A DNA stretch of 64,000 nucleotides. Origin: Deltaproteobacteria bacterium (GTDB lineage: Bacteria; Desulfobacterota; Desulfobacteria; Desulfobacterales; C00003060). The first letter of the stretch is position 1; every line of letters starts with the position of its first letter. The stretch lies in assembly GCA_019307135.1 (NCBI GenBank), contig JAFDKF010000028.1, positions 3,535-67,534 of the forward strand, in the 5' to 3' direction. The notes beneath the pieces were generated by a model. The model worked only from the letters and a program-made list of their open reading frames with translations. It had not been told where the DNA came from and made no database searches. Shown piece after piece: positions 18,325-42,441 of the stretch. The position numbers and the translations under genes are program-made.

Positions 18325-18473
18325 GTAACTTCTCAAAAAGTCTGGGTAATAGCTACTGGATTCCCGCCTTCGCGGGAATGACGATTGGCTGCAAATGCCT
18401 GTCATTCCCGCGAAGGCGGGAATCCAGTGAATAGTCGCAAAACATGATTTGCCCCAACTTATTGAGAAGTTAC
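18325..18473. mobile_element. MITE-like palindromic element, family A, full 149-bp copy
   Basis: The terminal inverted repeat gtaacttctcaaaaagtctgggtaa / ..ccccaacttattgagaagttac flanks two GC hairpins (attcccgc-cttc-gcgggaat). Same length and layout as 38257-38405. Confidence 0.7.
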
Positions 18474-19070
18474 TTTTCCGAGACGTTTATTTTCCGGTTC
18501 TTCGAGTTTTTCCAGAAGGTCGTCAATAGTGCCGCTGCTAAGGACCTGGTTAAATTGCGACCGGTAGGTTGTGATAAGGCTGACACCCTCGATCTCTATA
18601 TCATAGATCTTCCAGTTATGTTTTGATTTATATAGCTTGTATAACATGGATATTTTGTTGTCTTTTGAGATGAGGTCGGTTGGGATGTGAATTTTTTTCT
18701 TGACCTGAACAGGCGCATTATAGACGATCTTTTCATCTGTATAATTATAACGGGTCAGTTTTTCGAGATATGACTCCTTCAAACGTTTGATAAAAAGCTC
18801 CTTAAATCTCTCCTTCTTCTCTTTGGCCAGGCCGGGCCAGTACTTTCTCCCCAAAGTCAGCTTAGCCATTAGGGAAAAATCAAAGATTGGCGTAACGATT
18901 TCGATGATTGCTTTTTTCTTTGCTTCTATTTCAAGTTCTTTTTTTTGCAAGACCGAAATCACGGCCTCGAGCTTGCTTCTTAATGTCTCCTCGGCAGCAC
19001 TTTTATCATCCGCTATGACCGTCTGGCTCAACATCAGCAAGCTCAAAACAGCATACAGCAGGCTTTTCAT
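18459..19070 (-). CDS. mlaC: MlaC/Ttg2D-family periplasmic lipid-binding protein
   Basis: Signal peptide MKSLLYAVLSLLMLSQTVIA, then FDFSLMAKLTLGRKYW, F..LFIKRLKESY and WKIYDIEIEGVSLITTYRSQF match the MlaC pattern. The last 7 codons and the stop lie in a repeat element. Confidence 0.75.
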   Translation of the reverse strand: MKSLLYAVLSLLMLSQTVIADDKSAAEETLRSKLEAVISVLQKKELEIEAKKKAIIEIVTPIFDFSLMAKLTLGRKYWPGLAKEKKERFKELFIKRLKESYLEKLTRYNYTDEKIVYNAPVQVKKKIHIPTDLISKDNKISMLYKLYKSKHNWKIYDIEIEGVSLITTYRSQFNQVLSSGTIDDLLEKLEEPENKRLGKVTSQ

Positions 19071-19200
19071 AATTCATTCCTTTTTTTGCATATTGCGTCT
19101 TGCTCATATGCATTCCAACGGGACTCATTTTATGTCCCTCTGTACCAAGAACCCTGCTAATGTCATAAATAGAGAGGTTTTCTTTGCGCAATGCGATGAC

Positions 19201-19248
19201 GGGTTCACGGTTCAGAGGTTCAGGGTTCACCGAAAATCTGAACCGTTG
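19201..19248. repeat. GTTCAC-word hairpin fragment
   Basis: gggttcacggttcagaggttcagggttcaccgaaaatctgaaccg. Confidence 0.5.
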
Positions 19249-19274
19249 ATTCGCAAGTTCTGACTGGAGAAGGC

Positions 19275-19340
19275 ATGAGAATAGATCGATTTGAGGATAT
19301 TGAGGCATGGCAGTTGGCCCGGGAGCTAACTCGCAAGGTC
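19275..19340 (+). pseudogene. remnant of a four-helix-bundle (23S rRNA intervening-sequence type) protein gene
   Basis: ATG 19275 reads MRIDRFEDIEAWQLARELTRKV, the conserved N-terminus of that family. The frame then runs straight into a GTTCAC-word repeat and stops. Confidence 0.5.
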
Positions 19341-19581
19341 GTAACCATTCACGGGTTCAATGGTTCAGGGGTTCAGGGTTCACCGAACAAATGTTGAGAG
19401 CTGACCCCTTGTCACCGCCCGGTTGATGATTGAAAAAACAATCGACAATCGACAACCCCTGGCCCAGACCTGATTTACGGAGGCAGCAGCCTCTTCCAAT
19501 CAAGTCGCACCAGGGCGGGCGTAAATCGACAATCAAAAAAGGTAACCCTGAACGGTGAACTCTGAACCTGTGAACGCCTAC
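19341..19581. repeat. GTTCAC-family palindromic element (241 bp)
   Basis: Ends are gtaaccattcacgggttca.. and ..ctgaacctgtgaacgcctac. The interior holds caatcgacaatcgacaacc and aatcgacaatc words. Confidence 0.65.
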
Positions 19582-19668
19582 TTGATAGTTAAGCAAGGGG
19601 ATAAGTAGGCTTAAATTAGGAGAAAGGGTTGCTGCTTCGCATTCGGCAAGACCTGGATCGGCATCTTT

Positions 19669-20439
19669 TCAGTATCCAATATTTTCATGGTTCCCTTTCT
19701 TCCAGAAGATGTTTTTTTCAATAATCGCTCCATTGCTCATTGTATAGCATGAGGTGGAGCCCGAGATTCTTTTTGAAAGATAGGTGGAGTATTTATCGCT
19801 GAATTTAATTCTTTCGTCTAAAGCCTCTGAATAGACACCGGCCAGCCCGAGTATAAGCTCGCACACTTCCCTCACCGCATATTCATCCCCGACATGGGCG
19901 CAGATATAGTCGCAGAGATGGTTTTCTCTGACATAGCGCTCAAAAAGGGGGCTCGCCGTTCTCCTGACAAGGAACCTGAGGCCGCAGGCAGCGGCGATAG
20001 AAAGATCAAGCGCGTCATCAAAGACAAAGGCTATCCGGTCACGGGTAATCTCATATATACTTTCGATATGGTTGACGGCTTCGATCTTATTGGGCAGGCT
20101 GTAATACACAAACTGGAAGTGTTCTCTTCTGGAAAGCTCAAACGCAGACTTATTGTTCTGGCCCGTGATAATGCCAAACAAAGGAAGTTCATCGGACTTC
20201 AGCCAGTGGCCAAACCTGAGCAGGTTGGTCCCCATTGAATCAGGCTCAGCATATGCGCTGTGCGTGCCCTCCCCTTTTACGCCGGCATTAAACACACCGT
20301 CCCAGTCAAAAAGGTATACTTTTATGTTTTTAAGCTTTTCCGCTATCTGCGAAGCAGGTGTGATGAACTCGCCCCCGGCTTCTGAAAAAACCTTTTCAAC
20401 ACTTTCTGAAGATGTATTCACCTGGGTTGAGCGGTTCAA
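19669..20439 (-). CDS. HAD-superfamily phosphatase, divergent KdsC (Kdo-8-P phosphatase)-like
   Basis: Collinear with KdsC blocks: LFDWDGV (DxDGV), IITGQ, PNK, FDDALD, AVREVCELILGLAG. About 45 aa N-terminal and 50 aa C-terminal extensions. Start is TTG 20439 or GTG 20421. Confidence 0.6.
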   Translation of the reverse strand: MNRSTQVNTSSESVEKVFSEAGGEFITPASQIAEKLKNIKVYLFDWDGVFNAGVKGEGTHSAYAEPDSMGTNLLRFGHWLKSDELPLFGIITGQNNKSAFELSRREHFQFVYYSLPNKIEAVNHIESIYEITRDRIAFVFDDALDLSIAAACGLRFLVRRTASPLFERYVRENHLCDYICAHVGDEYAVREVCELILGLAGVYSEALDERIKFSDKYSTYLSKRISGSTSCYTMSNGAIIEKNIFWKKGNHENIGY

Positions 20440-20621
20440 CGTTCACAGTTCCCGGTTGAAGAGCCCTAACTGCTGTTAGCAAGAGGATAACGCGTCAATA
20501 GGGACGAATGTTATGTTTCACCCAATGGCTGAAAGAGGCTAATCTGAGCATTCTGTTATAAAGCTAAGCATATCAATAGATTATAACCTTTGAACCTTGA
20601 ACCCTGAACCTGGAACCGATC
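20425..20621. repeat. GTTCAC-word inverted arms around a ~125-bp interior
   Basis: Left arm ggttgagcggttcaacgttcacagttcccggttgaag, right arm cctttgaaccttgaaccctgaacctggaaccgatc. Confidence 0.5.
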
Positions 20622-20634
20622 ACTTTAGTATTCA

Positions 20635-21660
20635 TCAAGAGAGCAGGTCCTGTTTTATAAGGTCCTGGACATCTATCATTCCGATGAATTCATCATTGTC
20701 CAGAACAATGATATTATCGACCTGCCTGTCCTTGAAAATCTTTACAGCTTGGTACAGGAGCTCGTCTCCGCTAACCGTGAGCGGGGGATTATATGAAAAA
20801 TCGGACATCTTTTTGTTCATAAAGGATTCTGGATCGCGATTGAGCTGTCTTCTTAAGTCGCCGTCAGTAAAAATACCGGTAACCCTGCCGCTGTTATCAA
20901 GCACGGCAACAGCCCCCAGCCTGGAATCGGTCATCTGGACCATTGCGTCGAACACGGTATCCTTCAAGCGAACCGCGGGTTTTGCTTCTCTTATGATTTC
21001 TTTCACGCGCGTGGTCATGAGCTGCGTGTGTATCTCAAACTCCCTGATCCCGACCGTTGTGAAACTGTTTTCAGTAAGCTGTTTCATGACCTTCCAGGGA
21101 ACCGTGCAGGTATGGACGCCAATGTTTATGGCGTTCCGGACATGCTCCGGGTGCCGGACGGATGAAAACATGATTTTTGTATCATAGCCGTAAAATTCAA
21201 CAGCCTCCACGCACTGCTCTATCAAGGCAAGGGCGTCATGTCCTTCATCCTGAAGGCGTCCGACCAGGGGACAGACATAATCAGCGCCAGCGGCCATTGC
21301 CATATATGCCTGCTGGAGTGTGTACACCAGATGGACATTCACTCTCATCCCTTCATCTTTCATTTGCTTGCACGCCCTGACGCCTTCCAGGGAAACAGGG
21401 GTTTTAAAAACCGTTTTTCCCTTATCCAGCCCCAGTCCTATAAGACGGTGAGCCTCCTTCACGATCTCTTCACTGGTATCGCCCAGCGCTTCAATCTGCA
21501 GTACAGGAACTATCTTGGACAGTCTTACGATTGTGCCGTCAACATCGGTAATGCCGTGACGATGCATGAAAGTAGGTGTTGTTGTCAGGCCGGCCAGAAA
21601 ACCGAGTTTAAACGCCTCTTCAATCTCCTTTATGTCTGCTGAATCTAAATAAAGTTCCAT
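20635..21660 (-). CDS. fructose-6-phosphate aldolase/transaldolase (TalC/FSA)-type TIM barrel fused to a KdsD-type CBS pair
   Basis: aa 1-215 read MELYLDSADIKEI..GLTTTPT..TVFKTPVS (Schiff-base Lys position)..GADYVCPLVGR, collinear with E. coli FsaA. aa 225-341 form two CBS motifs containing GIFTDGDLRR, the KdsD/GutQ C-terminal signature. Confidence 0.8.
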   Translation of the reverse strand: MELYLDSADIKEIEEAFKLGFLAGLTTTPTFMHRHGITDVDGTIVRLSKIVPVLQIEALGDTSEEIVKEAHRLIGLGLDKGKTVFKTPVSLEGVRACKQMKDEGMRVNVHLVYTLQQAYMAMAAGADYVCPLVGRLQDEGHDALALIEQCVEAVEFYGYDTKIMFSSVRHPEHVRNAINIGVHTCTVPWKVMKQLTENSFTTVGIREFEIHTQLMTTRVKEIIREAKPAVRLKDTVFDAMVQMTDSRLGAVAVLDNSGRVTGIFTDGDLRRQLNRDPESFMNKKMSDFSYNPPLTVSGDELLYQAVKIFKDRQVDNIIVLDNDEFIGMIDVQDLIKQDLLS

Positions 21661-21731
21661 GGTAAAAATTCTCTTTCCTTTTGGTTTATTCCTGAAGGTT
21701 TCTTAAAAGTCATAAAATATTTACGGGTTAA

Positions 21732-22568: not shown

Positions 22569-22573
22569 CTATC

Positions 22574-22714
22574 GTAACCGTTCACGGGTTCAGAGGTTCA
22601 GTTAAAAGAATAGAGGTCAGAGATCAGAGGTCGGAGGTCTGGCTTCTGATCTCTGACTTCTGAACTCTGATCTCTGACTTCTGAACGGTGAACTCTGAAC
22701 CTGTGAACGCCTAC
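22574..22714. repeat. GTTCAC-family palindromic element (141 bp), nested arms
   Basis: Outer arms gtaaccgttcacgggttcagaggttcag / ctgaacggtgaactctgaacctgtgaacgcctac. Inner arms gaggtcagagatcagaggtcggaggtc / gatctctgacttctgaactctgatctctgacttc. The element starts 6 nt from the kdsA ATG. Confidence 0.75.
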
Positions 22715-22751
22715 CCGGATTTATATGTAACAAAAGAAACTGTTGACGCGG

Positions 22752-22780
22752 AGTATGTCCCAAGGCTTACAGGGTGTCAA
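22752..22780 (-). promoter_or_regulatory. candidate sigma70-like promoter upstream of the kdsA hairpin element
   Basis: The minus strand reads TTGACA-17 nt-CATACT. The transcript would carry the 141-nt palindrome as its 5' leader. Confidence 0.3.
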
Positions 22781-22836
22781 GTTAATTGTGAATACTGCAT
22801 GTTGCACTGTTTTATGATGATAAATACCGGCTCGAT

Positions 22837-23595
22837 TTACTCATAAAAGGAACGATTTGCCCTGATAATTTTTTCTACTTCCGGAATATCTTCCGGTCTG
22901 TCAACCCCGATACTTTTGTATTCAGTTTTTACTATATGAATCGGTATCCCGTTTTCAAGAAGGCGGAGTTGCTCGAGCTTTTCCGTCTGCTCCAGATATC
23001 CGGGCCCCAGTTCCACGAATTTTTTAAGGGTTCTCATCCGGAACGCGTAAATCCCGATGTGCAGAAAAAATTCCACTTTTTTATTGTCCCGCGGATACGG
23101 TATTGGGGACCGTGAGAAGTATAACGCCCTGAGATTGTTGTCAAAAACAACCTTGACGCGATCAGCGCTGTCTTTTTCACCCTGTGTGATCCTCCTTACA
23201 GGCGTTGTCACCTGCACAGCAGGATCGGAAAACGGCTGGATTAACCTTGTCAGCACATGCGGATCAAGCGCGGGTTCATCCCCCTGGATATTTATGACAA
23301 CATCATCTTCCTGAATAACATCAAGCCCTTCAGCGGCTTCAAGCACACGGTCGGATCCGCTCGGGTGGTCAGGGCTTGTCATTACCGTATCAACATCATT
23401 GGACTTTGCGTCGTTAAAAATCTTTTCGCTGTCGGTTGCAAGCACAACGCGTTGTAATATTTGACATTTTTTTGCCTGATTATAAACACGCCAGTACATT
23501 TTTCTGCCTTCGATTGCAGCGAGCGGCTTACCCTCAAAACGTGTTGAGCCGTAGCGGCACGGTATAATACCGTAGCAGGATGGAAGTTCAGTCAT
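22837..23595 (-). CDS. kdsB: 3-deoxy-manno-octulosonate cytidylyltransferase (CMP-Kdo synthetase)
   Basis: ORF 22837..23628 trimmed to ATG 23595. IIPCRYGSTRFEGKPL, ATDS, VINIQGDEP and LEQLRLLENG. Confidence 0.9.
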   Translation of the reverse strand: MTELPSCYGIIPCRYGSTRFEGKPLAAIEGRKMYWRVYNQAKKCQILQRVVLATDSEKIFNDAKSNDVDTVMTSPDHPSGSDRVLEAAEGLDVIQEDDVVINIQGDEPALDPHVLTRLIQPFSDPAVQVTTPVRRITQGEKDSADRVKVVFDNNLRALYFSRSPIPYPRDNKKVEFFLHIGIYAFRMRTLKKFVELGPGYLEQTEKLEQLRLLENGIPIHIVKTEYKSIGVDRPEDIPEVEKIIRANRSFYE

Positions 23596-23614
23596 GGTTT
23601 TACCTAAAGTGATC

Positions 23615-23712
23615 GGTTCAAGGTTCACGGTTCACGGTTCACGGTTCACGGTTCACGGTTTTAACCTCTGAACGTTGAACCGTTGAACCTTGAACCGTTG
23701 AACCGCTCAACC
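23615..23712. repeat. heptamer array (GGTTCAC)x5 paired with GTTGAAC-word arm
   Basis: ggttcaaggttcacggttcacggttcacggttcacggttcacgg tttta acctctgaacgttgaaccgttgaaccttgaaccgttgaaccg. Confidence 0.75.
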
Positions 23713-25003
23713 TAGATTTTACTCGTTTGTTCAGGTATTCGGTTATAAGCCCACACGCCCGGGCCGTCCCCCCCTGACGCGTTTTAACGTACTTAAGCGC
23801 GGCCTCTTGTACTTTTTTACGGTCAGGCGGCTGCTCTATCTCCCGGGCAAGCGTGTCCGCTGCCTCCTTCCAGTCAGAAACTTCACGGAGCAAACCCTGT
23901 TCCACTATTTCCAGGCCTACCCAGGAAAAGCTTTCCCAGTACCGGCCGATCACAGGTATTACTCCGCATAGCAGTGCTTCAAGAAAGTTCTGGCCGCCGA
24001 GCGGAGCAAGTGAACCTCCGACAAAAATAGCCGCGGCCAGCTGGTAGGCCATGGTCAATTCGCCAAATGTATCCCAGAGGATCACAGAACCTTTTTGAAC
24101 AGGTGGCCCTGTTTTTGACCGGAGCAACCACGGTATTTTAAGACGGTCAAGTGTCTTTGCCCACACCCCGATCCTGTGCATATGGCGTGGGAACAGCCCG
24201 ATTACTGTTTCAGGATGCCGGCCCGAGATGTCCGCAATGATCTTTTCAATGTCATCCTCTTCTTCCTGCCGGACAGAGCCCAGGACAAGAAACGGCGCGT
24301 CCGCCGGGATGATCTGCTTTACCCTGTTCTCCCCCGCGGGCGTATTCACGCTGTCTGCCGCCCGGTCGAATTTAATGTTCGGCATTGCACTGACCCTCTC
24401 TCTGCCGAATATCGCGGCAAACCGGTTTGCGTCATCTTCAGACACGGCAAGAATCCTGTCAGGGCTAAGTGAACGCGTAAGGGACGGCCATACCGTGTAT
24501 CTTTTTACATATTTTTCAGTAAGCCTGCCGTTTATGACACATATTTTACAGCCGCTTTTTTTCAGGGCTGACAGATGGCCGGGCCAGATTTCCGTCTCAA
24601 GAAGGACCATAAGCCGGGGCTGTATTTTCCGGACAGCTTTTTCCATAATTGAGGGACGGTCAAAAGGGAAATAGGCGGTTTCCGCTGTAATGCCCCTTGT
24701 GTTTGGCGTAATGTCACTGACAGCCTTTTCCAGTATTCCCATCCCCTGGACCGTGTTTGTTGTCAGGACAATTTTTACAGGATTTTCAGGATACAATGTT
24801 TTTAAAATCGACCATGCCAGGAAGGATTCGCCGACAGAGGCGGCCTGGATCCACAGGTCCGCAGGTCCGGATATTTCCCTTTTAAGAACCCGCTGGTCAA
24901 AACCGTCCGCAAGCCGTCTGTTTAACCTTAAAGCGGGGATGACAAGTCTCCATAAGAAATCATACAGAAGAAATGCGGTTTTTTCGGTTATTCCTGAAGG
25001 CAC
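23639..25003 (-). CDS. waaA: Kdo transferase
   Basis: WIQAASVGE, a GT30 Kdo-transferase N-domain and FVGGSLAPLGGQN. GTG start. The last ~25 codons (SRLSGSTVQGSTVQRSEVKTVNREP) are encoded by a heptamer repeat. Confidence 0.9.
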   Translation of the reverse strand: MPSGITEKTAFLLYDFLWRLVIPALRLNRRLADGFDQRVLKREISGPADLWIQAASVGESFLAWSILKTLYPENPVKIVLTTNTVQGMGILEKAVSDITPNTRGITAETAYFPFDRPSIMEKAVRKIQPRLMVLLETEIWPGHLSALKKSGCKICVINGRLTEKYVKRYTVWPSLTRSLSPDRILAVSEDDANRFAAIFGRERVSAMPNIKFDRAADSVNTPAGENRVKQIIPADAPFLVLGSVRQEEEDDIEKIIADISGRHPETVIGLFPRHMHRIGVWAKTLDRLKIPWLLRSKTGPPVQKGSVILWDTFGELTMAYQLAAAIFVGGSLAPLGGQNFLEALLCGVIPVIGRYWESFSWVGLEIVEQGLLREVSDWKEAADTLAREIEQPPDRKKVQEAALKYVKTRQGGTARACGLITEYLNKRVKSRLSGSTVQGSTVQRSEVKTVNREP

Positions 25004-25032
25004 GTATCAGGTTCCTCAAGCTTAATATAAGC

Positions 25033-25237
25033 GTAGGCGTTCACAGGTTCAGAGTTCACCGTTTCAGCCGTCGTAGCCTGCCGACTTCGCCATAGTAGCC
25101 ATAGGCTACGACGGCTGAAACGGCTACTATGGCGAAGTCGGCTCAGGGTTATCTTTCTTTCGTTAACCTTGCTTGTAGGACGGTTCAGATTTCGGTGAAC
25201 CCTGAACCTCTGAACCATTGAACCAATGAACGCTTAC
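25033..25237. repeat. GTTCAC-family palindromic element (205 bp) with interleaved-stem core
   Basis: Ends gtaggcgttcacaggttcagagttcaccg / cggtgaaccctgaacctctgaaccattgaaccaatgaacgcttac. For the core see the finding at 25064-25142. Confidence 0.7.
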
Positions 25238-25936: not shown

Positions 25937-26073
25937 TCAATAGGTTCTAAAATTTCTGAGTAACTTCTCAAAAAGTTCGGGTATGTTTATTATGAGCCAG
26001 TTTGCTGGATGCCCGCTTTCGCGGGCATGACGGGGGATTTATTACATTCGTCATTCCTGCGAAGGCGGGAATC
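25937..26073. mobile_element. MITE-like element family A, right end truncated
   Basis: ttcaataggttctaaaatttctgagtaacttctcaaaaagttcgggta..ggatgcccgctttcgcgggcatgacg..gtcattcctgcgaaggcgggaatc. Its left flank is shared with the 18.3 kb copy. Confidence 0.6.
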
Positions 26074-26685
26074 ACGTCTAACCATATCACGGATGGACTT
26101 TATTGCCCTGCCAGGCAGCCATAGATCGCTCAGGGTCTTGCCCAGGGCAAGCCTTCTCCTCTCCTTATTGGTCATGCTCTCAGGGTTAAGCTTTCCTTTT
26201 ACCTTGAGAAAACCCATTCGGTCAATGCTCGCCAGGAAATCCTTGAGCTTCCCTGGCCGTGGGATGTAAAGGCATGATGCGAAGTCTACGAGGTACGGAA
26301 GCCCACTATCGTCTATGCCGTAATTTCTCCTGTTCCTCAGGTCCAGATGCAGAACCCCCCTCTGGTGCATCTGCTCAATAATCTTTGAGAGTTTCTCAAA
26401 GTAGGCGCCATCTGGCTTCTTTGTTGTCGCTCTGAGGTTTTCGCCCCCCATATAGGATGTGACGAGAGTGTACCTATCTGGCCTGCCGGTGAGCTTTGGT
26501 ATACCGGATATGTCCTTTAGCCTTGAGTAGATAAAAGCCTCCCAGGAGACGAGCAGTATCCCCATCATGCGCACAGGCCAGGCTTTGTTCCTGTAAGTCT
26601 TTTCCACAAGGCATCTGCCATCAAGACGCATCAATGAAACATCAGGCCCGTAGATACGTTTCTTTTTAAAGACCATCTGTGTCAT
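25990..26685 (-). CDS. small RIO/Kdo-kinase-like protein kinase fold
   Basis: VEKTY..(Lys), catalytic loop VLHLDLRNRRN and DFASC (DFG-like). The C-terminal ~20 codons and the stop lie in a MITE-like repeat. Confidence 0.55.
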   Translation of the reverse strand: MTQMVFKKKRIYGPDVSLMRLDGRCLVEKTYRNKAWPVRMMGILLVSWEAFIYSRLKDISGIPKLTGRPDRYTLVTSYMGGENLRATTKKPDGAYFEKLSKIIEQMHQRGVLHLDLRNRRNYGIDDSGLPYLVDFASCLYIPRPGKLKDFLASIDRMGFLKVKGKLNPESMTNKERRRLALGKTLSDLWLPGRAIKSIRDMVRRDSRLRRNDECNKSPVMPAKAGIQQTGS

Positions 26686-26748: not shown

Positions 26749-26838
26749 GGCCTCCGGCCGGTAGGCTTCCGGCCTCCGGCTCGTAGAGCCTACGCCTCGG
26801 AGAGCTCGTAGAGCCTACAGCTCGGAGAGGCCTACGCC
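26749..26838. repeat. direct word repeats (cctccggcc x2, tcgtagagcctac x2, ctcggagag x2)
   Basis: Read directly in the spacer between the kinase-like and SGNH genes. Confidence 0.5.
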
Positions 26839-28295
26839 CCGGAGGGAATAGTAGAACGGAAGTACCTCGACAATTCTTCGGCCACCGCAACGTGCCCAAG
26901 GGGGGTCCAATGCTGGTCGTAGGTGTAGTAAACCTGACGACCTCGCGCCGCCAGGCTCTGCAGCGCAGCGGTGGCGCTAACAAATCCGACGCCCTGGCTT
27001 TGGCAAAACTCGCGCAGGACATTCTCCTGGGAGTCCAGTCGGTCGTACAGTTTCTTCTTGAATTCTTTCGGCGCAGGCAGCCCGCGTTTTTTGAGTGAAG
27101 CAAACCCGTGCAGATGTTCCGGCGAAATATTTTCTTTTACCAGGGGCATTACTACATGGGGTTTACTCGGAGCGTATGCGAAAACCAGGCGGATCGTCTC
27201 CCGATCGCAGAGATCCTTGATCATTTTAAAAACCTTGACCGTGCTGGTCCAGCCGAAGGATTGGCGAAACTCGCATTCGGTCCAGTATAGGCGCATGAGA
27301 CGCTTGGGCTTGAAAGCGTAATATCTGGCACCAGGACCCGGTGGCACCGCAACGGGCATCCAGGAAAGTATTTCAGCACCCCGAACCGGGCCGTCGGCAT
27401 TGATAGGACCCAGGTGCTTGATAAAACCGGTTTTGAAACCTATTACAACGGGGGAGTATTTGATGGCTTTCACAATCCGTTTATCCAAAGGTTGGCCCGG
27501 GTTGCTCGAACCCTTTTCAAGCCTGACGCCTTTGAAGTCATTTCCTTCGTAAATCATGAAGATGGCCACCTTTGGTTTGAGGTCCAGGCCAAACGCCCGA
27601 AACGTGTTAAGATAATAGTCCGGCCGGCCACCCGAAATCCCCAAATTGTAGACGCTGCGGTTCAGTTTTTTCCCCAGGAGAACTGGCCACGGTTCATCGT
27701 CGGACACCCGTGACCCCTCTGTGAAGGAATCACCCATTGTCACAATATCATACTGTTCAAGGCTGGTGAGGTTCCGGTATCCACGGACATCGGTTGTTAG
27801 GGTGACGTCAACCGTAGGGTATCCTGCCGCGGGGTCGGGATAGGAGCGGGCAGTAGGTGGGGCGTCGGTGTAACGAATTTTATAGAAACTGTTAGGGGGA
27901 CGGTGACGTACGACATCATGAACGCGCTCCCCGGGCCAATTTTTTCTGAACTTAACTTGCTTTTCGATATAACGCGGTTTGCGAATAAGCTGACTCAGGA
28001 CATGGATCGCCAGCGTTGCAAGGATAACCGAGAACACGAGGGCTGCAACGCGAAAGGCCACTTGTTTCCCGCTGAGCTTCATTGAGGCCCAAAGGGCATA
28101 AGCAACCAGCCAGAGGATTGGCGTGAGGAAAAAGAGAATAGAAAACCACTCCACGGAGTATCTGCCAAGCAGGACATGGCGGTGTTCCGCGATTAGCTCC
28201 ACGACATTGCTGGGAAAAAGCCAAATGCAGAAACTGAGCGAGGCAATACCTAACGCCAAATAGATTTTAACCCGTTTTCCCTTTACCTTTTCCAT
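26832..28295 (-). CDS. membrane-anchored SGNH/GDSL-type hydrolase or acyltransferase (AlgJ/AlgX-like)
   Basis: Three N-terminal TM helices. SGNH blocks MGDSFTEG (I), NLGISGG (II), EGND (III) and YDQHWTPLGH (V, DxxH/DxHW as in AlgJ). Confidence 0.6.
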   Translation of the reverse strand: MEKVKGKRVKIYLALGIASLSFCIWLFPSNVVELIAEHRHVLLGRYSVEWFSILFFLTPILWLVAYALWASMKLSGKQVAFRVAALVFSVILATLAIHVLSQLIRKPRYIEKQVKFRKNWPGERVHDVVRHRPPNSFYKIRYTDAPPTARSYPDPAAGYPTVDVTLTTDVRGYRNLTSLEQYDIVTMGDSFTEGSRVSDDEPWPVLLGKKLNRSVYNLGISGGRPDYYLNTFRAFGLDLKPKVAIFMIYEGNDFKGVRLEKGSSNPGQPLDKRIVKAIKYSPVVIGFKTGFIKHLGPINADGPVRGAEILSWMPVAVPPGPGARYYAFKPKRLMRLYWTECEFRQSFGWTSTVKVFKMIKDLCDRETIRLVFAYAPSKPHVVMPLVKENISPEHLHGFASLKKRGLPAPKEFKKKLYDRLDSQENVLREFCQSQGVGFVSATAALQSLAARGRQVYYTYDQHWTPLGHVAVAEELSRYFRSTIPSGA

Positions 28296-28597: not shown

Positions 28598-28614
28598 GTC
28601 TCTCTCCCTAACCC

Positions 28615-28803
28615 GGATAAACCGGAAATCCGAAGCACGAAATTCGAAACTCGAAACAAATCCAAAATCCAAATCTTCGAATGTTCAAAACATGGAATCT
28701 AAACTATTCGAGATAATTATGGTTGTGGATTCAGTTTTGGTCATTTGAATTTTGAAAATTGAAAATTTGTTTCGGATTTCGATATTCGGATTTCGAATTT
28801 ATT
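28615..28803. repeat. CGAAATCCGAA-family palindromic element, copy 1
   Basis: Left arm ataaaccggaaatccgaagcacgaaattcgaaa, right arm tttcggatttcgatattcggatttcgaatttatt. Confidence 0.7.
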
Positions 28804-28840
28804 TTCTCCCATAAAAAGTACGAAATAAATTATTAACGGA

Positions 28841-31226: not shown

Positions 31227-31260
31227 GATTTTACCTCCTTTTGTAAAAAAACGGTTAAAT

Positions 31261-31555
31261 GGTTGAGTAGTCGAGTGGTCAAGTGGTCAAGTGGTCAAGT
31301 GGTCAAGTGGTCACTTGTCACTTGTCACTTGTCACTTGTCACTTGTCACTTGTCACTTGTTATTTGTTATTTGTCATTTGTTATTTGTCATTTGTTATCA
31401 GGGAAAGTGAGCTAAAGTGAGCTAAAGTGCCTAAAGTTGAAAACCCCAATTCCGCATTCCGTACTCTTTTCAAGGCGTGAGCCGCAAATCCGCATTCCGT
31501 ACGTTCCTGGTTCACAAACAACCACTCAACTACTCAACTACTCGACCACTCAACC
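31261..31555. repeat. composite microsatellite mosaic inside a GGTTGAG-word hairpin
   Basis: Outer arms ggttgagtagtcgagtggtc / actactcgaccactcaacc. The interior holds (ggtcaagt)x4, (gtcactt)x6, (gttattt/gtcattt)x5, (gagctaaagt)x2+gcctaaagt and ccgcattccgtac x2. Confidence 0.8.
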
Positions 31556-32487
31556 AGATCCCGGATCCACTCATACTCCGTTAGGAGCCCCTCTTGGATC
31601 AACACTTTCGGCTTATATCCCAGTTTTTCTTTAGCCTTGGTCATATCGGCCATGGTGTGCCGCACATCCCCCTTTTGCTTAGCCTGATAGTCTATCTCCA
31701 GTTCTCTGCCCGCTATCTCCTTTATTATTTCAATGACCCCATTCAGAGTAATACGTGAGCCTCCCCCAATATTGAATACCTCGCCTGGAAGAGCTTTTTC
31801 TAAAGCCAGCCAGTTTGCCTCTACAATATCGTCCACGTGAGTGAAGTCTCTGCTCTGTTCACCATCCCCGTATACCTTAAGAGGTTTGTCCTGCAAGGCC
31901 CATGTAAAGAAGCGATGAAAGGCCATGTCTGGTCGCTGCCGGGCACCATAAACCGTGAAATATCGCAGTGAAACCGCTGGTATTCCAAAATTTTTGCAGT
32001 AAAGAAAACAAAGGTGTTCTGCAGCCAACTTTGAAACACCATACGGGGAAACCGGACACGGCAGGGAAGATTCCCTCATGGGAAGATCTCTGGTATCTCC
32101 GTAAACCGAAGAGGAGGAAGCATAAACAAATTTGTTGACAGGTCTTTCCCTGCATGCCTCAAGGAGCATCTGGGTGGCAACAATATTGTTATCAGAGTAA
32201 ATCTTAAAGTTTTGTCCCCAACTTGCCCGCACCCCCGCCTGGGCCGCTTGATGAAAAACGACATCAACCCCGTCCAAAAGCTTTGTCAAGTCCACTTGAA
32301 CAAGGCTCGCTTCAACAAACTCAAAATTCTGATGCTTCCTCAAATCAGCAATACTTGCTTCCTTTATGGATCTAGGATAGTAATCCATAAAATTATCGAT
32401 GCCTACAACCTCAAATCCTTTTTCAATCAAATATTCGCACAAATGCGATCCAATAAAACCAGCCGCCCCTGTCACTAAAGACTTCAT
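31534..32487 (-). CDS. NAD-dependent nucleotide-sugar epimerase/dehydratase (extended SDR)
   Basis: MKSLVTGAAGFIGSHL (GxxGxxG), SSSSVYG and YGVSKLAAE (YxxxK). The stop codon lies in a repeat arm. Confidence 0.85.
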   Translation of the reverse strand: MKSLVTGAAGFIGSHLCEYLIEKGFEVVGIDNFMDYYPRSIKEASIADLRKHQNFEFVEASLVQVDLTKLLDGVDVVFHQAAQAGVRASWGQNFKIYSDNNIVATQMLLEACRERPVNKFVYASSSSVYGDTRDLPMRESSLPCPVSPYGVSKLAAEHLCFLYCKNFGIPAVSLRYFTVYGARQRPDMAFHRFFTWALQDKPLKVYGDGEQSRDFTHVDDIVEANWLALEKALPGEVFNIGGGSRITLNGVIEIIKEIAGRELEIDYQAKQKGDVRHTMADMTKAKEKLGYKPKVLIQEGLLTEYEWIRDLVEWSSS

Positions 32488-32569
32488 TTTGCCCCCCCCC
32501 CTTTTGCAACCTCGAGGTTAAAGAAAGCTCCATTTACTCTTGCTGTTAACTCATTATTTTGGGATGAAT

Positions 32570-34775: not shown

Positions 34776-34776
34776 A

Positions 34777-34881
34777 GTTACCGTTCGCCGTTCACTGTTA
34801 ACCGTTGTCCGCCTTATCGAGCGCATCTGGTCATTACGACCTTCTGTTTGTCGGTGAACGGAAAACGGTGAACGGTCAACC
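34777..34881. repeat. GTTCAC-word hairpin exactly filling the lptF-lptG junction
   Basis: Arms gttaccgttcgccgttcactgttaaccgttg / cggtgaacggaaaacggtgaacggtcaacc. Contains the lptF TGA and ends 2 nt from the lptG ATG. Confidence 0.7.
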
Positions 34882-36060: not shown

Positions 36061-36134
36061 CTGGGGTGTGAATCACAGCTGTTGGCAATGAGAAAATCCA
36101 TGTCCGTCTGCTACGTATTTAGCTTTGGGGAAAA

Positions 36135-36164
36135 GGTGTCAGGTTTCGGGTTTCAGGTGTCAGG
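36135..36164. repeat. GGTTTCAGG/GGTGTCAGG word array (single arm)
   Basis: ggtgtcaggtttcgggtttcaggtgtcagg. Confidence 0.5.
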
Positions 36165-36176
36165 ATCGAGAAACTT

Positions 36177-37934: not shown

Positions 37935-37960
37935 ACTGGATATGAAATAGGAAAAGATTT

Positions 37961-38169
37961 CCACCTGTGCGGTTAAGAAACTATACAAAACCAATCACGA
38001 AAACACGAAAGTACGAAAACACGAAATAAAACGTGAGTTATTCTCGTTCCCATGCTCTGCGTGGGAACGTAAGCGTCCAGCGGTAGGGTTACAACGCAGA
38101 GCATTGTAACCAGTATATCGTCGTGCTGTCCGAAGGTATGACCTGGGCAAACTGTCCAACCGCACAGGT
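37961..38169. repeat. inverted-repeat-bounded element containing two hairpins with complementary loops
   Basis: ccacctgtgcggtt (37961) pairs with aaccgcacaggt (38158). The interior holds acgaaaacacgaaagtacgaaaacacgaaa words and hairpins at 38045-38069 and 38087-38111. Confidence 0.55.
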
Positions 38170-38256
38170 CGAAAGATTTGAACGGAGGACCTAAAAAACC
38201 CTTTCTTAAAAGGTTATTTTATTCCTTTAACTTTAGGCACCTTAGCTCACTTTGGG

Positions 38257-38405
38257 GTAACTTCTCAATAAGTCCGGGTAATCGCTGCTGGATTCCCGCC
38301 TTCGCGGGAATGACGATTGGGTGTAAGTGGCTGTCATTCCCGCGAAAGCGGGAATCCAGTAAATAGTCGTGAAATCTGATTTACCCGAACTTATTGAGAA
38401 GTTAC
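38257..38405. mobile_element. MITE-like palindromic element, family A, full 149-bp copy
   Basis: A 25-nt terminal inverted repeat, gtaacttctcaataagtccgggtaa / ttacccgaacttattgagaagttac, flanks the two attcccgc..gcgggaat hairpins. Confidence 0.75.
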
Positions 38406-38415
38406 ACTTTGGGTG

Positions 38416-39102
38416 TTAGTCTATCGCGTGACCATAGTATAGGTCCACAAATTTTGTGATTCGATTCAGTTCTGCTTCAAGGTTTGCGCGATAGACCTCT
38501 TTTGTCTCTGCATCGACTTTGCACGGGACTGAAATAGGTGTGCCATAGATAACTCTACCTTCAGTAAACGGACAGGGAAGCATAAACCGATCCCAACTGG
38601 CAAAGATCTTTATCCTCTCTGCGCTGTAGCTGAGAGGTACAATAGGATATCCTGTCTTTTGAGCCAGAGTTATAACGCCGGGCTGAACCCTGAACCGGGG
38701 GCCCCTTGGACCATCCGGAACCACAACTCCGGGGCAAATCTCTTCCTTAAGGGCCTTGATTAACCTTGCCAGAGCTCGAACGCCGTGCCGTGAGGTGGAA
38801 CCCCGGATTGTCTTATGGCCTTGACGCTTCAGTATTTGCGCAATGATCTCCCCGTCCTTGGATTTGCTGACGAGGATGGCGGCACCCAACCGCTTGTAAA
38901 GGTAGCTAAGCATAAGTATTCTCGAATGCCAAAAGGCAAAGATAAATCTCCCTGACTCGATCTCCGCCCTGGCCTTATCAAAGTCAATAGTCCGAATGCG
39001 GATCGTGCTGCAAATCAGGTCGGTCAAACCTTTCCCGAGCCAGCCGACCAGCCACCACTTCAACGTATTCCGTATGGGGTTAATTGAGTTTGTTGGGTTC
39101 AT
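38416..39102 (-). CDS. DUF374-family (lysophospholipid acyltransferase-like) protein
   Basis: FAFWHSRILMLSY..LVSKSKDGEIIAQILKRQGHKTIRGSTSRHG..VVPDGPRGPRF fits the DUF374 pattern. ATG 39102 chosen because upstream codons (NPTNSMNPTNPTNSTNP) are repeat-encoded. Confidence 0.7.
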   Translation of the reverse strand: MNPTNSINPIRNTLKWWLVGWLGKGLTDLICSTIRIRTIDFDKARAEIESGRFIFAFWHSRILMLSYLYKRLGAAILVSKSKDGEIIAQILKRQGHKTIRGSTSRHGVRALARLIKALKEEICPGVVVPDGPRGPRFRVQPGVITLAQKTGYPIVPLSYSAERIKIFASWDRFMLPCPFTEGRVIYGTPISVPCKVDAETKEVYRANLEAELNRITKFVDLYYGHAID

Positions 39103-39197
39103 TGGGTTTGTTGAGTTTGTCGGGTTTGTCGGGTTCATTGAGTTTGTCGGGTTATAACTCAACAAACACAAGAAACCATGTAAACTCAACAAACACG
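39077..39197. repeat. family D hairpin (GGGTTYATTGAG/GGGTTTGTYG words, loop, AACTCAACAAACAC words), copy 1
   Basis: The central ggttataactcaacaaacacaagaaac is shared with copy 2. Contains the lpxB stop and the DUF374 ATG. Confidence 0.7.
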
Positions 39198-40334
39198 GTT
39201 GCCCGAAAGCAACCTGATGGCCACCTCCGCAGCCCGTTTCGAGGCCCCTGGAGCGCCCAGACTCTGTGCAACATGACGCAGCTTGTGCCGGATTTCAGCA
39301 AGCCCTTTTTCGTCTCTGAGCATCTGTGACGCCTGGTGGGCAATCTTTTTGGCTGACGCTTCGTGCTGAATCAGCTCTGGCACGATCGGTCTTTCAGCAA
39401 CCAGGTTGGCCATGCCAATATGTTTTACGCGAATCAGGCGCTTTCCAAGCCAGTAACTGAGAGGCGATACCTTATACACGATAATCATAGGCGTGCCCGC
39501 TATGGCCGCCTCCAATGTCACGGTCCCAGAAGCTGTTATGACCAATGAGGCCTCATCCAATACATCTCGAAGCCCATCGCGCAGGATCAAAAACCTTGCG
39601 GTTCCCCCCTCAACAATGGTCTCTACGAGGGTCCTGTCCACCGAAGAGGCCACAGGTATAGCAAAGCGGATACCTGGAAGCTGTTCCGAAAGAATATCTG
39701 CCGCATGCACCATGGTGGGAAGGAGACGCGTAATCTCCCCGTTTCGGCTTCCAGGCAGCAGCCCGATCAGCAAGCTGTCCCCCTTGAGATTTCCCTTTTT
39801 CTCCCTCGATGTCCCGGACGTCATGCTGTCCAGTAAAGGATGCCCAACAAAGGTCACGGGGACATGCCATTTCTTGTAAAAGGCTACCTCAAAAGGGAAA
39901 ATCACGACCATATGATCAACCACATTCTTGATCTTTTTTACCCTCCCGGTCCGCCACGCCCATACTTGCGGACTAATGTAATACATGACAGGGATACCCA
40001 GTTTTTTGGCACCAGCGGCAACGTGCAGGTTAAAGTCCGGAAAATCGATCAAAATAAGGAGATCGGGGCGAATTTTACTTAGCCCTTTCTTGACAACCCT
40101 GAGAGCACTCAGAATGACTCTGAACTTCAAAAAGGCCTCCGAAATCCCGACGACAGCTATTTGGGAATTGTCAACCATCAGGCGAACGCCGGCCTGTTGA
40201 AGGGCGTTTCCACCTATACCAAAGAAATCGAGCTCTCGATTGAGAGCCCGAATAGCCTTTACCAGATGCGCACCGTGCATGTCACCGGAGGCTTCTCCGG
40301 CGATAATCATTATCTTTTTGTCTTGCAACTTCAC
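39186..40334 (-). CDS. lpxB: lipid-A-disaccharide synthase
   Basis: IMIIAGEASGDMHGAHLV, DFPDFNL, YYISPQVWAWR and LPGSR. Start is GTG (or ATG 40313). Confidence 0.9.
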   Translation of the reverse strand: MKLQDKKIMIIAGEASGDMHGAHLVKAIRALNRELDFFGIGGNALQQAGVRLMVDNSQIAVVGISEAFLKFRVILSALRVVKKGLSKIRPDLLILIDFPDFNLHVAAGAKKLGIPVMYYISPQVWAWRTGRVKKIKNVVDHMVVIFPFEVAFYKKWHVPVTFVGHPLLDSMTSGTSREKKGNLKGDSLLIGLLPGSRNGEITRLLPTMVHAADILSEQLPGIRFAIPVASSVDRTLVETIVEGGTARFLILRDGLRDVLDEASLVITASGTVTLEAAIAGTPMIIVYKVSPLSYWLGKRLIRVKHIGMANLVAERPIVPELIQHEASAKKIAHQASQMLRDEKGLAEIRHKLRHVAQSLGAPGASKRAAEVAIRLLSGNRVC

Positions 40335-40405
40335 AACTCATCGTTCGCTTATTAAATTCGTACTTAGATTAATTCTTATATGGACCTAAATCTTTATCCC
40401 GTTTT

Positions 40406-40527
40406 GGTTTCAGGTTTCAGGGCACATGTAGGTTTCAGGTGTCAGTGTTCTCAGGAAAGAGAAACGCAAAAACTGAAACCTGACACCCGACACCTGGAAC
40501 CTGGTTTCTGAAACCCGAAACCTGAGG
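40406..40527. repeat. GGTTTCAGG-word hairpin
   Basis: Arms ggtttcaggtttcagggcacatgtaggtttcaggtgtcag / ctgaaacctgacacccgacacctggaacctggtttctgaaacccgaaacctgagg. Confidence 0.7.
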
Positions 40528-40595
40528 AGTATATAGATTCTCAAAATTAACAAAAGTCTATCCCTATTAAGCGAATGATAAGAGGTCACTTTAGC

Positions 40596-41549
40596 TCACT
40601 TTAGGCACTTCAATGTCTCCTCGATCTGGTCCATGATGCTAAGGGCAACCCGCAGGGCATTCCGCCCGTCTCTCCCCGATACCAACGGGGCCTCACGATT
40701 TCTTACGGACCGTATAAATGCCTCCAGCTCAGATTCCAGGGAATCGGCTTTCTCAAAGCTTGTTCGTTGCAAAGACATGCCGGGGATGGGAAGCTCGGTA
40801 CCCTTCCCGTCCTTCCGGACAATCGTAATCTCATGATTCGCATAATCGACCGAAACATAGGTATCTTTCTGGAAAATACGTATCTTTCGCATGTTTTTCA
40901 GGGAAATACGGCTGGCAGTTATATTGGCAACACAGCCATTCTCAAAGACAAGCCGCACGTTGGCGACGTCCACGCAAGAAGATATGACCGGAACACCTGC
41001 CGCATGAATGCTCTTGAGTTCTGACCTGACAAAACTTAATATGATATCGATGTCATGGATCATCAAATCTAAAACTACATCCACTTCGGTTCCCCGTTCC
41101 TTAAAAACACTCAAACGGTGAGACTCTATGAAGAGGGGACGGTCCACGACTTCCCTCAGGGCTATCACCGCGGGATTGAATCGCTCCAGATGCCCCACCT
41201 GGATGATTGGGCCGTGGGAATCTGCAATCTTTATTAGAGCATCTGCCTCCTCAAGAGTCTCTGTTATGGGCTTTTCGATCAAGACATCCACATTATTTTC
41301 CAAGAAATCACGGCTAATGTAAAAATGAAGGGGGGTGGGTACCACCACACTCACTGCGTCTACTTCACCTATGAGATCTCTGTAATCGGTAAAAGATTCC
41401 GTTCCAAGCCGTTTTGCAACGTTTTGCGCCCTTTCGGTAATGATGTCCACCACACCCGCAAGCTTCACCCCATCCATCCGGGCATATTTCTCAGCGTGAA
41501 ACCTGCCGAGGTATCCGACTCCCACGACGCCTACACGTAACTCTTTCAT
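40596..41549 (-). CDS. Gfo/Idh/MocA-family NAD(P) oxidoreductase (candidate GnnA-type UDP-GlcNAc 3-dehydrogenase)
   Basis: LRVGVVGVGYLGRFHA Rossmann motif, EKP motif (LIEKPIT) and GHLERFNP. Sits between lpxI and lpxB. Confidence 0.8.
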   Translation of the reverse strand: MKELRVGVVGVGYLGRFHAEKYARMDGVKLAGVVDIITERAQNVAKRLGTESFTDYRDLIGEVDAVSVVVPTPLHFYISRDFLENNVDVLIEKPITETLEEADALIKIADSHGPIIQVGHLERFNPAVIALREVVDRPLFIESHRLSVFKERGTEVDVVLDLMIHDIDIILSFVRSELKSIHAAGVPVISSCVDVANVRLVFENGCVANITASRISLKNMRKIRIFQKDTYVSVDYANHEITIVRKDGKGTELPIPGMSLQRTSFEKADSLESELEAFIRSVRNREAPLVSGRDGRNALRVALSIMDQIEETLKCLK

Positions 41550-41559
41550 AGCTTGCTCA

Positions 41560-41625
41560 GTAGCGTGCCCCCTCTGTGGGGCACATCCCCAAAGGCAATC
41601 GTGGGGGACAGAGCCCCCACGCTAC
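41560..41625. repeat. REP-like three-way structure (outer stem gtagcg/cgctac enclosing two G/C hairpins)
   Basis: gtgcccc-ctctgt-ggggcac and cgtggggg-acagag-cccccacg. Confidence 0.55.
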
Positions 41626-41634
41626 AAACCCTCA

Positions 41635-42441
41635 CTATTCTACACCTATAATCACAATCCCGCTTCGATCAGCCAGTGCAACCATCTCTTCCCTGCCAAA
41701 GACCACCGTCTTGCCTGCCTCAACGGCCAGGACCGACGCTCCAACATCACGCATGGTCTCAATGGTTTTGACCGCGACGGCCGGCATGTCGAATCGCATA
41801 TCCTGGTTGGGCTTACTTGCCTTCACAACGACCGTTTTTTCCTTTCCAAGCCCCCCTCCTCGCGTTATGGTGGCATCAGTACCATCAATAGCCTCAACCG
41901 CCATCACTGACCTGTCCCGAACCACCACAGTCTGGCCAATATCCAACCTTCCAATCTCCTTGACTATACGCCATCCGAAATGTACATCGGCCATCTCGGA
42001 CCTGGTCGGCTTGCGCCGTGTCCAGCATCCTCTTTTTGCCAGGAGTTCGGGCACCAAGAAAGTAGAAGGGTGAATGGTTATCCCCTCTTTTTCCAACTCG
42101 CCGGCAAAGGCCCGCAGGAGTCCATCGTCCTGCGTATGATCCATAGTGGCCAGTACCTTCAGAGCCCTCAGGTCCGGCCTCACCCCTGAAAACATCTTGG
42201 TCTTGGTGATGGCCCCAGCCAATACCGCATCACTGACTCCATTTTCCTTAAAAAATGCAATAAGTCGCTTCAATTGGCCGATCTTTACCCACCTTATCGC
42301 CTCTACAAGGTTTTCCAGTCGGGGATCGGTTTCCCCAACATGGGCTATTGCGTAAACCTTCAACCCCCTTTCCCTGGCCGCCTTTGAAAAAATGCCGGGG
42401 AACTGCCCGCTCCCGGCTATGAGTCCGATTTTTGGGTTCAT
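41635..42441 (-). CDS. lpxI: UDP-2,3-diacylglucosamine pyrophosphatase LpxI (DUF1009)
   Basis: ORF trimmed to ATG 42441. KIGLIAGSGQFP, EIGRLDIGQTVVV and AVEAIDGTDATI are collinear with Caulobacter LpxI as I recall it. Confidence 0.8.
   Translation of the reverse strand: MNPKIGLIAGSGQFPGIFSKAARERGLKVYAIAHVGETDPRLENLVEAIRWVKIGQLKRLIAFFKENGVSDAVLAGAITKTKMFSGVRPDLRALKVLATMDHTQDDGLLRAFAGELEKEGITIHPSTFLVPELLAKRGCWTRRKPTRSEMADVHFGWRIVKEIGRLDIGQTVVVRDRSVMAVEAIDGTDATITRGGGLGKEKTVVVKASKPNQDMRFDMPAVAVKTIETMRDVGASVLAVEAGKTVVFGREEMVALADRSGIVIIGVE

Follow-up and report, generated by a model that had tools for sequence, protein, structure and literature searches.

How do the genes of an operon keep their ends when nearly every gap between them is filled by a repeat? 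This question is raised by a 64,000-nt stretch of DNA (the window; contig JAFDKF010000028.1 of assembly GCA_019307135.1, positions 3,535 to 67,534) from an uncultured Desulfobacterales bacterium, known from a metagenome-assembled genome (MAG) of 4.3 Mb in 314 contigs. Between 18 and 44 kb the window holds a minus-strand cluster of lipid A, 3-deoxy-D-manno-octulosonate (Kdo) and lipopolysaccharide-export genes, namely mlaC, a kdsC-like gene, FSA/CBS, kdsA, kdsB, waaA, a PEMT-like gene, a kinase-like open reading frame (ORF), an SGNH-like gene, DUF5989, a carbamoyltransferase gene, a Trm112-like gene, an epimerase gene, lpxK, lptG, lptF, msbA, DUF374, lpxB, a Gfo/Idh/MocA gene, lpxI, lpxA and fabZ. 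The gene names were upheld by Pfam, with the exception of the kinase-like ORF, which had no Pfam match. An initial annotation had proposed that repeats give these genes stop codons, C-terminal tails and even start codons. Our comparison with related genomes favours this reading with a probability of about 0.85: mobile hairpin repeats in the gene junctions would supply stops, tails and one start, the tails being tolerated by-products.

Repeats at the gene junctions

Repeat intervals were defined by BLAST of the window against its own 4.3-Mb genome, with a threshold of at least three further copies. The 36 intervals obtained make up 8.1% of the window, and nearly all intergenic gaps of the cluster are filled by them. 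For comparison we used a strain ~97% identical in DNA and assembled as an independent MAG (L001), a sister species 85–90% identical and syntenic from 31 kb of the window onward (L007, also G002), the relatives L002–L005 (~85–89% identical) and the more distant L006, L008 and L009 (60–75%). G006, G011 and G023 were used for the ends of mlaC and the kinase-like gene.

All nine codons that had been read as lying inside or against repeats (seven stops and two starts) are present on the minus strand at the coordinates given here. Eight of them fall in intervals with at least three further copies, the lptF stop being the exception. Related genomes have empty or differently filled sites at these junctions, where the ancestral arrangement ranges from a 4-nt overlap to a spacer of ~85 nt, and the proposal that the elements insert flush against reading frames or slightly into them is borne out.

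Stop codons and C-terminal tails

In the window MlaC ends in ENKRLGKVTSQ*, vs. ENKQSAS* in G006 and ENKPPAS* in G023, both of which lack the element, a MITE (miniature inverted-repeat transposable element) of family A (Table 1). Deleting this element in silico, together with one copy of its target duplication, restores the ending ..RLGNSATY*. The MITE thus entered mlaC five codons before the old stop and supplies VTSQ and the TAA. Although the whole of LGKVTSQ had been ascribed to the family-A terminus, LG belongs to the native protein and K to the target duplication. The kinase-like orthologues of G006 and G011 end in IRDMIR(Y/H)VRTSFLGSA* without a MITE, and in G023 an unrelated insertion of ~290 nt occupies the same codon, with the old tail stranded downstream.

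WaaA continues for 29 residues past its last homologous residue (..EYLN), the match ending at 425–426 of 454. About 26 of these residues are repeat-encoded by comparison with five relatives, close to the ~25 proposed; in the relatives the stop comes 2–14 residues past the equivalent position. The frame stays open across the heptamer arm and closes in the GTGAACC arm, where TGA occurs in every frame. The epimerase ends in LVEWSSS* in the window and in LVE* in L007, where the same array has another word order and the stop comes four codons earlier; L008 lacks the array and ends differently.

For lpxB (TGA 39186–88) the relatives end in ..LLSGH*, the window in ..LLSGNRVC* and L001 in ..LLSSNCVC*, so that three residues are repeat-given. 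The Gfo/Idh/MocA protein (TGA 40596–98) ends in TLKCLTL* in L007 and in TLKCLK* in the window and L001, where ~260 nt are inserted after AAGTGCCTAA. The LKCLK tail had been derived from CTAAAGTG words; this holds for the K and the stop, but LKCL is ancestral. In L007 the gfo TGA overlaps the lpxB GTG in an uninterrupted GTGA, which in the window is split by a family-P element plus words.

The last ~22 residues of LptF bear no relation to the L007, L006 and L008 ends and have no repeat copies elsewhere. The stop alone (TGA 34876–78) lies inside a palindrome; it is placed in the first word of an element that is unique as a whole, with arms built from shared words. The stop of the SGNH-like gene (26832–34), which also lies in a word array, was absent from the initial annotation. 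BLAST coverage suggested the FSA-CBS stop (20635–37) and the PEMT-like stop (25239–41) as further cases, but they lie 7 nt and 1–2 nt outside the elements, respectively.

Taken over MlaC, the kinase-like protein, WaaA, the epimerase, LptF, LpxB and Gfo, orthologue ends differ and the tails are not conserved protein sequence across relatives, for which reason we take them to be by-products that are tolerated. Homology stops at the element in all cases and never resumes, so that no in-frame insertion of the type of the Rickettsia palindromic elements (RPEs) was found.

A start codon from a repeat

The lpxI gene is the firmest case of a start donated by a repeat. Every in-frame start before its conserved core lies inside the hairpin 42430–42546: the three candidate ATGs (42457–59, 42448–50 and 42439–41) are all in CAATGAACT words of the 3′ arm, and no ATG, GTG or TTG occurs between the repeat and KIGLIAGSG. 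In L007 the junction reads GAGATAG-G-ATGAAACGAATCGGACTC (MKRIGLIAG), with the lpxA stop and the lpxI start 1 nt apart; L002 and L005 have GTG at this place. L007, L002, L005 and L006 have no element here, while the window and L001 share a hairpin of 105–115 nt and have lost the old ATG. The two strains differ in words, and the protein would begin MNPTNPTNPK.. in L001 vs. MNPK.. in the window.

For DUF374 the in-frame ATGs 39136–38 and 39100–02 lie in the repeat and a TTG (39061–63) lies just outside it. The core starts at LKWW. The TTG is common to the close relatives; in L006 the position is TTA, with an ATG 20 codons upstream, and in L007 an ATG lies 10 codons upstream. The ATG 39100–02 inside the repeat, chosen by the initial annotation, is the probable but not certain start, as the conserved TTG makes the call ambiguous.

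Other starts are neighbours of repeats. The lptG ATG (34773–75) is 1–2 nt from the end of the palindrome, as had been noted, but L007 has the same ATG behind a 48-nt spacer, and the codon is ancestral, not donated. The lpxB GTG (40332–34), missing from the earlier list, is likewise an ancestral codon and stands flush with the ATG-bearing right end of family P. Elements do lie upstream of kdsA and DUF5989 (Pfam 3.2e-24), but at 5 rather than 6 nt and at about 10 rather than 18 nt. The truA start (TTG 58809–11 or 58800–02; Pfam 3e-42) is 0–9 nt from a palindrome, in agreement with the abutment claimed, although truA (58050–58811) is outside the range 18459–42441 to which the claim was assigned; in G002 asd and truA are separated by a ~20-nt spacer with no repeat.

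A Shine-Dalgarno sequence is absent before kdsA, lptG, lpxI, lpxB and truA and present before most other genes of the cluster. This absence had been explained by the repeat occupying the space. However, the repeat is not the sole cause, because the repeat-free lptG and lpxI junctions of L007 also lack a good one.

Table 1. Repeat elements and affected genes in the window
Feature	Coordinates	Strand	Remarks
mlaC	18459..19070	-	TAA 18459-61; Pfam MlaC 2.3e-40
Kinase-like ORF	25990..26685	-	TAA 25990-92; 27 MITE-encoded residues (DSRLRRNDECNKSPVMPAKAGIQQTGS) and stop
waaA	23639..25003	-	TGA 23639-41; stop in heptamer-word hairpin
NAD-dependent epimerase gene	31534..32487	-	TGA 31534-36; Pfam Epimerase 2.4e-63; tail WSSS and stop from word array
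lpxI	41635..42441	-	Pfam LpxI_N starts at the residue right after the repeat; conserved core from KIGLIAGSG
Family-A MITE	18325..18473 (149 bp)		8-bp target duplication 18474-18481 and 18317-18324; carries mlaC stop
Family-A MITE, second	38257..38405		6 nt past DUF374 stop; target duplication CCCAAAGT
Family-A copy, short	25960..26073		lacks ~35 nt of gene-proximal end; core of repetitive extragenic palindrome (REP) type encodes kinase-like tail
Family-P MITE-like element	40337..40582 (246 bp)	-	terminal inverted repeat CTYATCRTTCGCTTAATA; inner AGGTTTC/GAAACCT hairpin; preceded by CTAAAGTG words 40583-40601
Family-E element	28603..28824	-	CCGGGTTAGG end ~10 nt before DUF5989 ATG (28595-97)
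Palindromic element	22574..22714		ends GTAGGCGTTCAC.../...GTGAACGGTTAC; 5 nt before kdsA ATG (22566-68); up to 211 word copies
Heptamer-word hairpin	23592..23721		(GGTTCAN)n / (GTGAACC)n; waaA-kdsB gap; Tandem Repeats Finder (TRF) arrays; up to 168 other copies of words
Tandem array of 22-25-nt words	26749-26847		GGCCTCCGGCTCGTAGAGCCTAC-like; holds TAG stop of SGNH-like gene (26832-34)
Octamer-word arm	31519..31560		GGTTGAGT-type; epimerase stop; part of composite repeat 31254-31560
Locus-specific palindrome	34776..34878		CCGTTCAC/GTGAACGG words; lptF-lptG gap; only arms match elsewhere
Repeat	36063-36176		lptF ATG and msbA stop flush with repeat; absent from the initial annotation
MITE	37961..38171		upstream of msbA; terminal inverted repeat CGACCTGTGCGGTT; target duplication AAATCTTT; absent in L001 (single AAATCTTT)
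Nonamer-word hairpin	39073..39196		(GTTGAGTTT)n / (AAACYCAAY)n; lpxB-DUF374 gap
Nonamer-word hairpin	42430..42546		lpxA (stop 42547-49)-lpxI gap
CTAAAGTG-word palindrome	58812..58948		between asd stop (58949-51) and truA

Turnover between strains

The 9 kb shared with L001 contain four presence/absence differences and several word changes. The intervals 43845–44072, 38257–38405 and 37961–38171 are found in the window only, and L001 alone has ~160 nt extra between lpxI and gfo. Which element fills the lpxI-gfo and lpxB-DUF374 gaps varies among the window, L001, L007 and L002–L004. Such turnover, with one junction filled differently from genome to genome, speaks against any particular insertion having a conserved function. 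It is also unlikely that the insertions are assembly artefacts, because the independent MAG L001 shares three of them.

Repeat families

Three kinds of repeat can be told apart: the classical MITEs of family A, the polar and MITE-like family P, and hairpins of tandem 7–10-nt words. Family A carries a 17-nt terminal inverted repeat (GTAACTTCTCAAWAAGT) at both ends and is present in the genome as 20 full copies, 145 BLAST matches and 171 terminal repeats. Nearly all of the full copies are flanked by 8-bp target duplications, and the site of the copy at 38257–38405 is empty in L001, with one CCCAAAGT only. Short, non-coding, multi-copy, with inverted termini, target duplications and empty sites in relatives, family A is a textbook MITE. 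Its core, CGTC-ATTCCCGC-GAAG-GCGGGAAT-CCA, is a head-to-head dimer of REP hairpins of CGTC-1 type: CGTCATTCCCGCGAAGGCGGGAATCCAG and its inverted partner have the CGTC tag, an AT-starting 8-bp stem, a 4-nt loop and CCA.

Around the 171 terminal repeats a TTA motif recurs at −15 to −13 (57%, 57% and 51%), 4 nt outside the duplicated 8-bp target and often as GTTA(C), like the element's own end. Targeting of stop codons by family A was considered and dropped, as too few copies lie at long-ORF ends to support it. With regard to a parent element, an IS66-type transposase fragment lies ~260 nt from one family-A-like terminal repeat (contig C153), but it is a fragment only, and no pair of terminal repeats 0.6–4 kb apart with shared flanking duplications was found in the genome. 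The GTAA ends and 8-bp duplications would fit the IS66 family. The genome also has 17 Y1_Tnp matches (e.g., C232:1127-2185), in ~340-aa proteins whose N-terminal part is a Y1 (IS200-like) transposase domain. Eight of these genes were examined for a link to REP-associated tyrosine transposases (RAYTs), and their flanks held no CGTC REPs.

The ends of family P are sharp (CTTATCATTCGCTTAATA... and ...TATTAAGCGAACGATGAG), no target duplication is visible, and the genome holds at least 12 further copies. Of 19 right ends, 10 have an ORF start no more than 40 nt away, and all eight informative copies have the order stop-[L..R]-start between co-directional genes. The ATG at the right end (..ACGATGAG) is the only start for a uvrC-like ORF of 608 aa on contig C9 and also heads a 260-aa ORF. 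No sigma-70-type promoter match was found in the element (a scan of 38000–43000 gave no more sites than shuffled sequence), nor was a Shine-Dalgarno-like sequence found before the ATG. In family E the CCGGGTTAGG end lies 5–20 nt before ORF starts in ~11 of 18 copies. This family terminates in TTTCCGGTTTATCCGGGTTAGG, whose final AGG may contribute to a Shine-Dalgarno sequence.

The word-array hairpins consist of an array of a 7–10-nt word followed by an array of its complement (GGTTCAC/GTGAACC, GTTGAGTTT/AAACTCAAC, GGTTGAGT and CTAAAGTG), with the number and order of words specific to locus and strain. The STRR heptamer repeats of cyanobacteria are likewise tandem 7-nt words in intergenic DNA. 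Unlike those, the words described here form complementary hairpin arms and are interleaved with MITEs.

Genome-wide scale

Repeated 13-mers take up 9.6% of the genome, 37% of its intergenic bases and 3.3% of its ORF bases. Genome-wide, the stop touches a repeat in 377 of 2554 long ORFs (14.8%); 1334 further long ORFs have a repeat within 200 nt downstream, the density peaking in the first 5 nt past the stop. At least 30 nt of repeat precede the stop in only 36 of the 377, whereas random sequence stays free of stops for 10 codons in ~62% of cases. From this scarcity of long tails it follows that element edges are stop-rich, or that long tails are selected against, or both. In the cluster, 8 of 20 long ORFs have their stop in a repeat, ~2.7 times the genome average (binomial P=0.005, with genes that are not independent). 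There is no special preference among stop codons, since TGA makes up 41% inside and 40% outside repeats.

RNA folding

The elements are computed to fold strongly as RNA, with energies from −39 to −91 kcal/mol: −90.9 for the family-A element at 18325–18473, −58 (z −6.5) for 23592–23721, −55 for 22574–22714, −42 (z −2.1) for 34776–34878 and −49.7 kcal/mol (z −5.8) for 42430–42546. The lpxA-lpxI stem predicted in silico has its start 3 nt past the lpxA UAA, and the three lpxI AUGs are all base-paired within it. Its base would be opened by a ribosome that terminates there, and translational coupling at lpxA-lpxI is plausible on the predicted structure.

Origin of the termini and alternative explanations

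We propose that small non-coding hairpin repeats colonised the gene junctions of the envelope cluster. Because these junctions are tiny and the genes are under selection, the surviving insertions are those that lie flush with a frame or a few codons inside it. After an element has landed before an old stop, translation runs on to the first in-frame stop, and 1–29 unrelated residues replace the old tail. Where the lpxA-lpxI junction was split, the old ATG was lost, leaving an in-frame ATG in the A/C-rich 3′ arm as the only start. The new tails and N-termini would be neutral or mildly harmful by-products, not functional protein parts. Once transcribed, a stable hairpin might place the stop of the upstream gene next to the start of the downstream gene at the base of the stem, and ribosomes finishing the upstream gene may open the stem and so keep the genes coupled. 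The initial annotation had left a choice between toleration as tails and a role in coupling or occlusion. The former fits, as the tails are unlike those of orthologues and vary between strains, while the predicted RNA structure leaves the latter as a structural possibility.

Some points weigh against this interpretation. The word-array hairpins inspected have neither target duplications nor fixed ends, and they may have spread by transposition or by local expansion and gene conversion; the genome-wide counts use simple, heuristic long-ORF calls. In addition, of 403 co-directional repeat-filled spacers, 242 fold better on the sense strand and 159 on the antisense strand (P=2e-4), with a mean difference of only 1.7 of ~69 kcal/mol. 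Together with the polarity of family P, this bias hints at something beyond pure neutrality; both would fit selection for an expression-compatible orientation and strand-specific transposition alike.

The elements could accordingly be kept for a role in expression, through coupling, occlusion, mRNA stabilisation as by REPs, processing sites or portable start cassettes. The pairing of the three lpxI AUGs just past the lpxA UAA, the uniform order of the informative family-P copies with the ATG of the uvrC-like ORF at the right end, the position of CCGGGTTAGG before many starts and the slightly better folding of the sense strand all speak for it. Nevertheless, we consider such a role unlikely, as insertions come and go between ~97% identical strains and sister species keep the same genes with no element, or with unrelated ones, at the same junctions. 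Moreover, the fold difference is small, the family-P copy has no sigma-70-type promoter, and strand-specific transposition could equally give the polarity. It seems less likely still that palindromic elements are tolerated within closely coupled operons because stems loop the inserts out in RNA, placing the stop beside a start in the 3′ arm, so that ribosomes reinitiate across 100–260 nt; families P and E may on this view have evolved ends that serve as portable start cassettes, with an ATG or a partial Shine-Dalgarno sequence, and enter or persist in the sense orientation only. It is rather doubtful, at the same time, that the word-array hairpins grew in place, by slippage, duplication or gene conversion, from local sequence that already resembled the words, the codons then coming from local expansion. 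The window does differ in word number and order from L001, and also from L007, at the same site, the lack of target duplications and fixed termini would be expected, and the ancestral gfo (AAGTGCCTAA) and lptG (ACGGTTTTCCGC) junctions resemble the local words. Yet many unlinked loci, and other genomes of the genus too, carry these word families; as judged against repeat-free relatives, whole hairpins arose at once with no intermediates; and several of the "arrays" are inner parts of discrete elements with defined ends. Finally, some starts might be mis-called, the true ones lying outside the repeats, as would be allowed by the DUF374 TTG, which all close relatives conserve, by another TTG in truA, 9 nt further in, and by the ancestral lptG and lpxB codons. 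This we hold to be improbable: lpxI offers no other start before its core, distant DUF374 orthologues begin 10–20 codons before LKWW and L006 has TTA in place of the TTG, and the stops are fixed once homology sets the frame. Insertion of mobile hairpins with tolerated termini is the reading we retain.

Other features of the region

The 17.5 kb between 13.6 and 31 kb of the window, holding the transporter/mlaC/Kdo/waaA/carbamoyltransferase part, correspond to only 6 kb in G002 contig C195, where waaA is inverted and only 60% identical between flanks 85–92% identical. The part of the envelope cluster from the transporter to the carbamoyltransferase has apparently been exchanged relative to G002. 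At 20635–21660, in the kdsD position of the Kdo operon, a CBS pair is joined to a transaldolase/FSA barrel (Pfam TAL_FSA and CBS). Ten consecutive G (32491–32500) occupy the ribosome-binding position 4 nt before the epimerase ATG, where L007 has AAGGAAGGGCAAT; this tract could be prone to slippage or sensitive to assembly.

Relation to known systems and significance

The phenomenon is already known from other bacteria, and the cluster is an unusually dense case of it, not a new kind of system. Among the GTAG/CGTC-tagged REPs described by Di Nocera, De Gregorio and Rocco in 2013 (PMC3733652), the CGTC-1 group includes Neisseria dRS3 and Rickettsia RPE-6. REPs lying within 20 bp of ORF 3′ ends are described there, as are REP termini that often give the stop codon (PMC3733652). 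The family-A core shares with them the AT-starting 8-bp stem, the 4-nt loop and the CCA tail; unlike them, its dimer sits inside a 149-bp element with its own 17-nt inverted repeats and 8-bp duplications, and we found no link of RAYT type. In Coxiella burnetii, QMITE1 and QMITE2 overlap the 3′ ends of functional genes by 1–50 bp and give them stops and C-terminal residues, as in the 33-residue strain-specific extension of EnhC (PMC5896051). There the elements make up <1% of the genome vs. 9.6% for the repeats here, which belong to many families, supply a start codon as well and reside in a free-living Desulfobacterales host.

Palindromic repeats translated within host proteins, such as the RPEs and other in-frame fusions, and repeats that extend the 3′ or 5′ ends of genes are described in reviews (PMC3184786, PMC10969869). 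RPEs lie mostly inside ORFs with host sequence on both sides, whereas here every case replaces a terminus. Neisseria REP2 and the Borrelia upstream repeats carry a promoter, a site for ribosome binding and an ATG (PMC3184786). Like REP2, family P lies directly upstream of genes in one orientation, and its end ATG is used by at least two ORFs; unlike REP2, it has no recognisable promoter or Shine-Dalgarno sequence and has MITE-like inverted termini. Chunjie, a MITE from Geobacter uraniireducens (Chen et al. 2008), as far as it is portrayed in the two reviews (PMC3184786, PMC10969869), forms very stable RNA hairpins and sits in an unbroken operon, and some of its copies overlap genes. Both it and the present elements are MITEs of delta-type bacteria, but going by the same accounts Chunjie has 9-bp duplications and different sequences.

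For annotation, these results mean that gene ends in repeat-rich uncultured genomes are unreliable. About one in seven long ORFs here ends in a repeat and lpxI, a likely essential lipid A gene, starts in one. Automatic callers will give strain-specific termini that are not protein features. For evolution, the cluster offers natural before/after pairs, in which an overlapping stop/start can be set against the same genes split by a 105-nt or a 260-nt hairpin. These pairs can be used to ask how operon coupling survives insertion.

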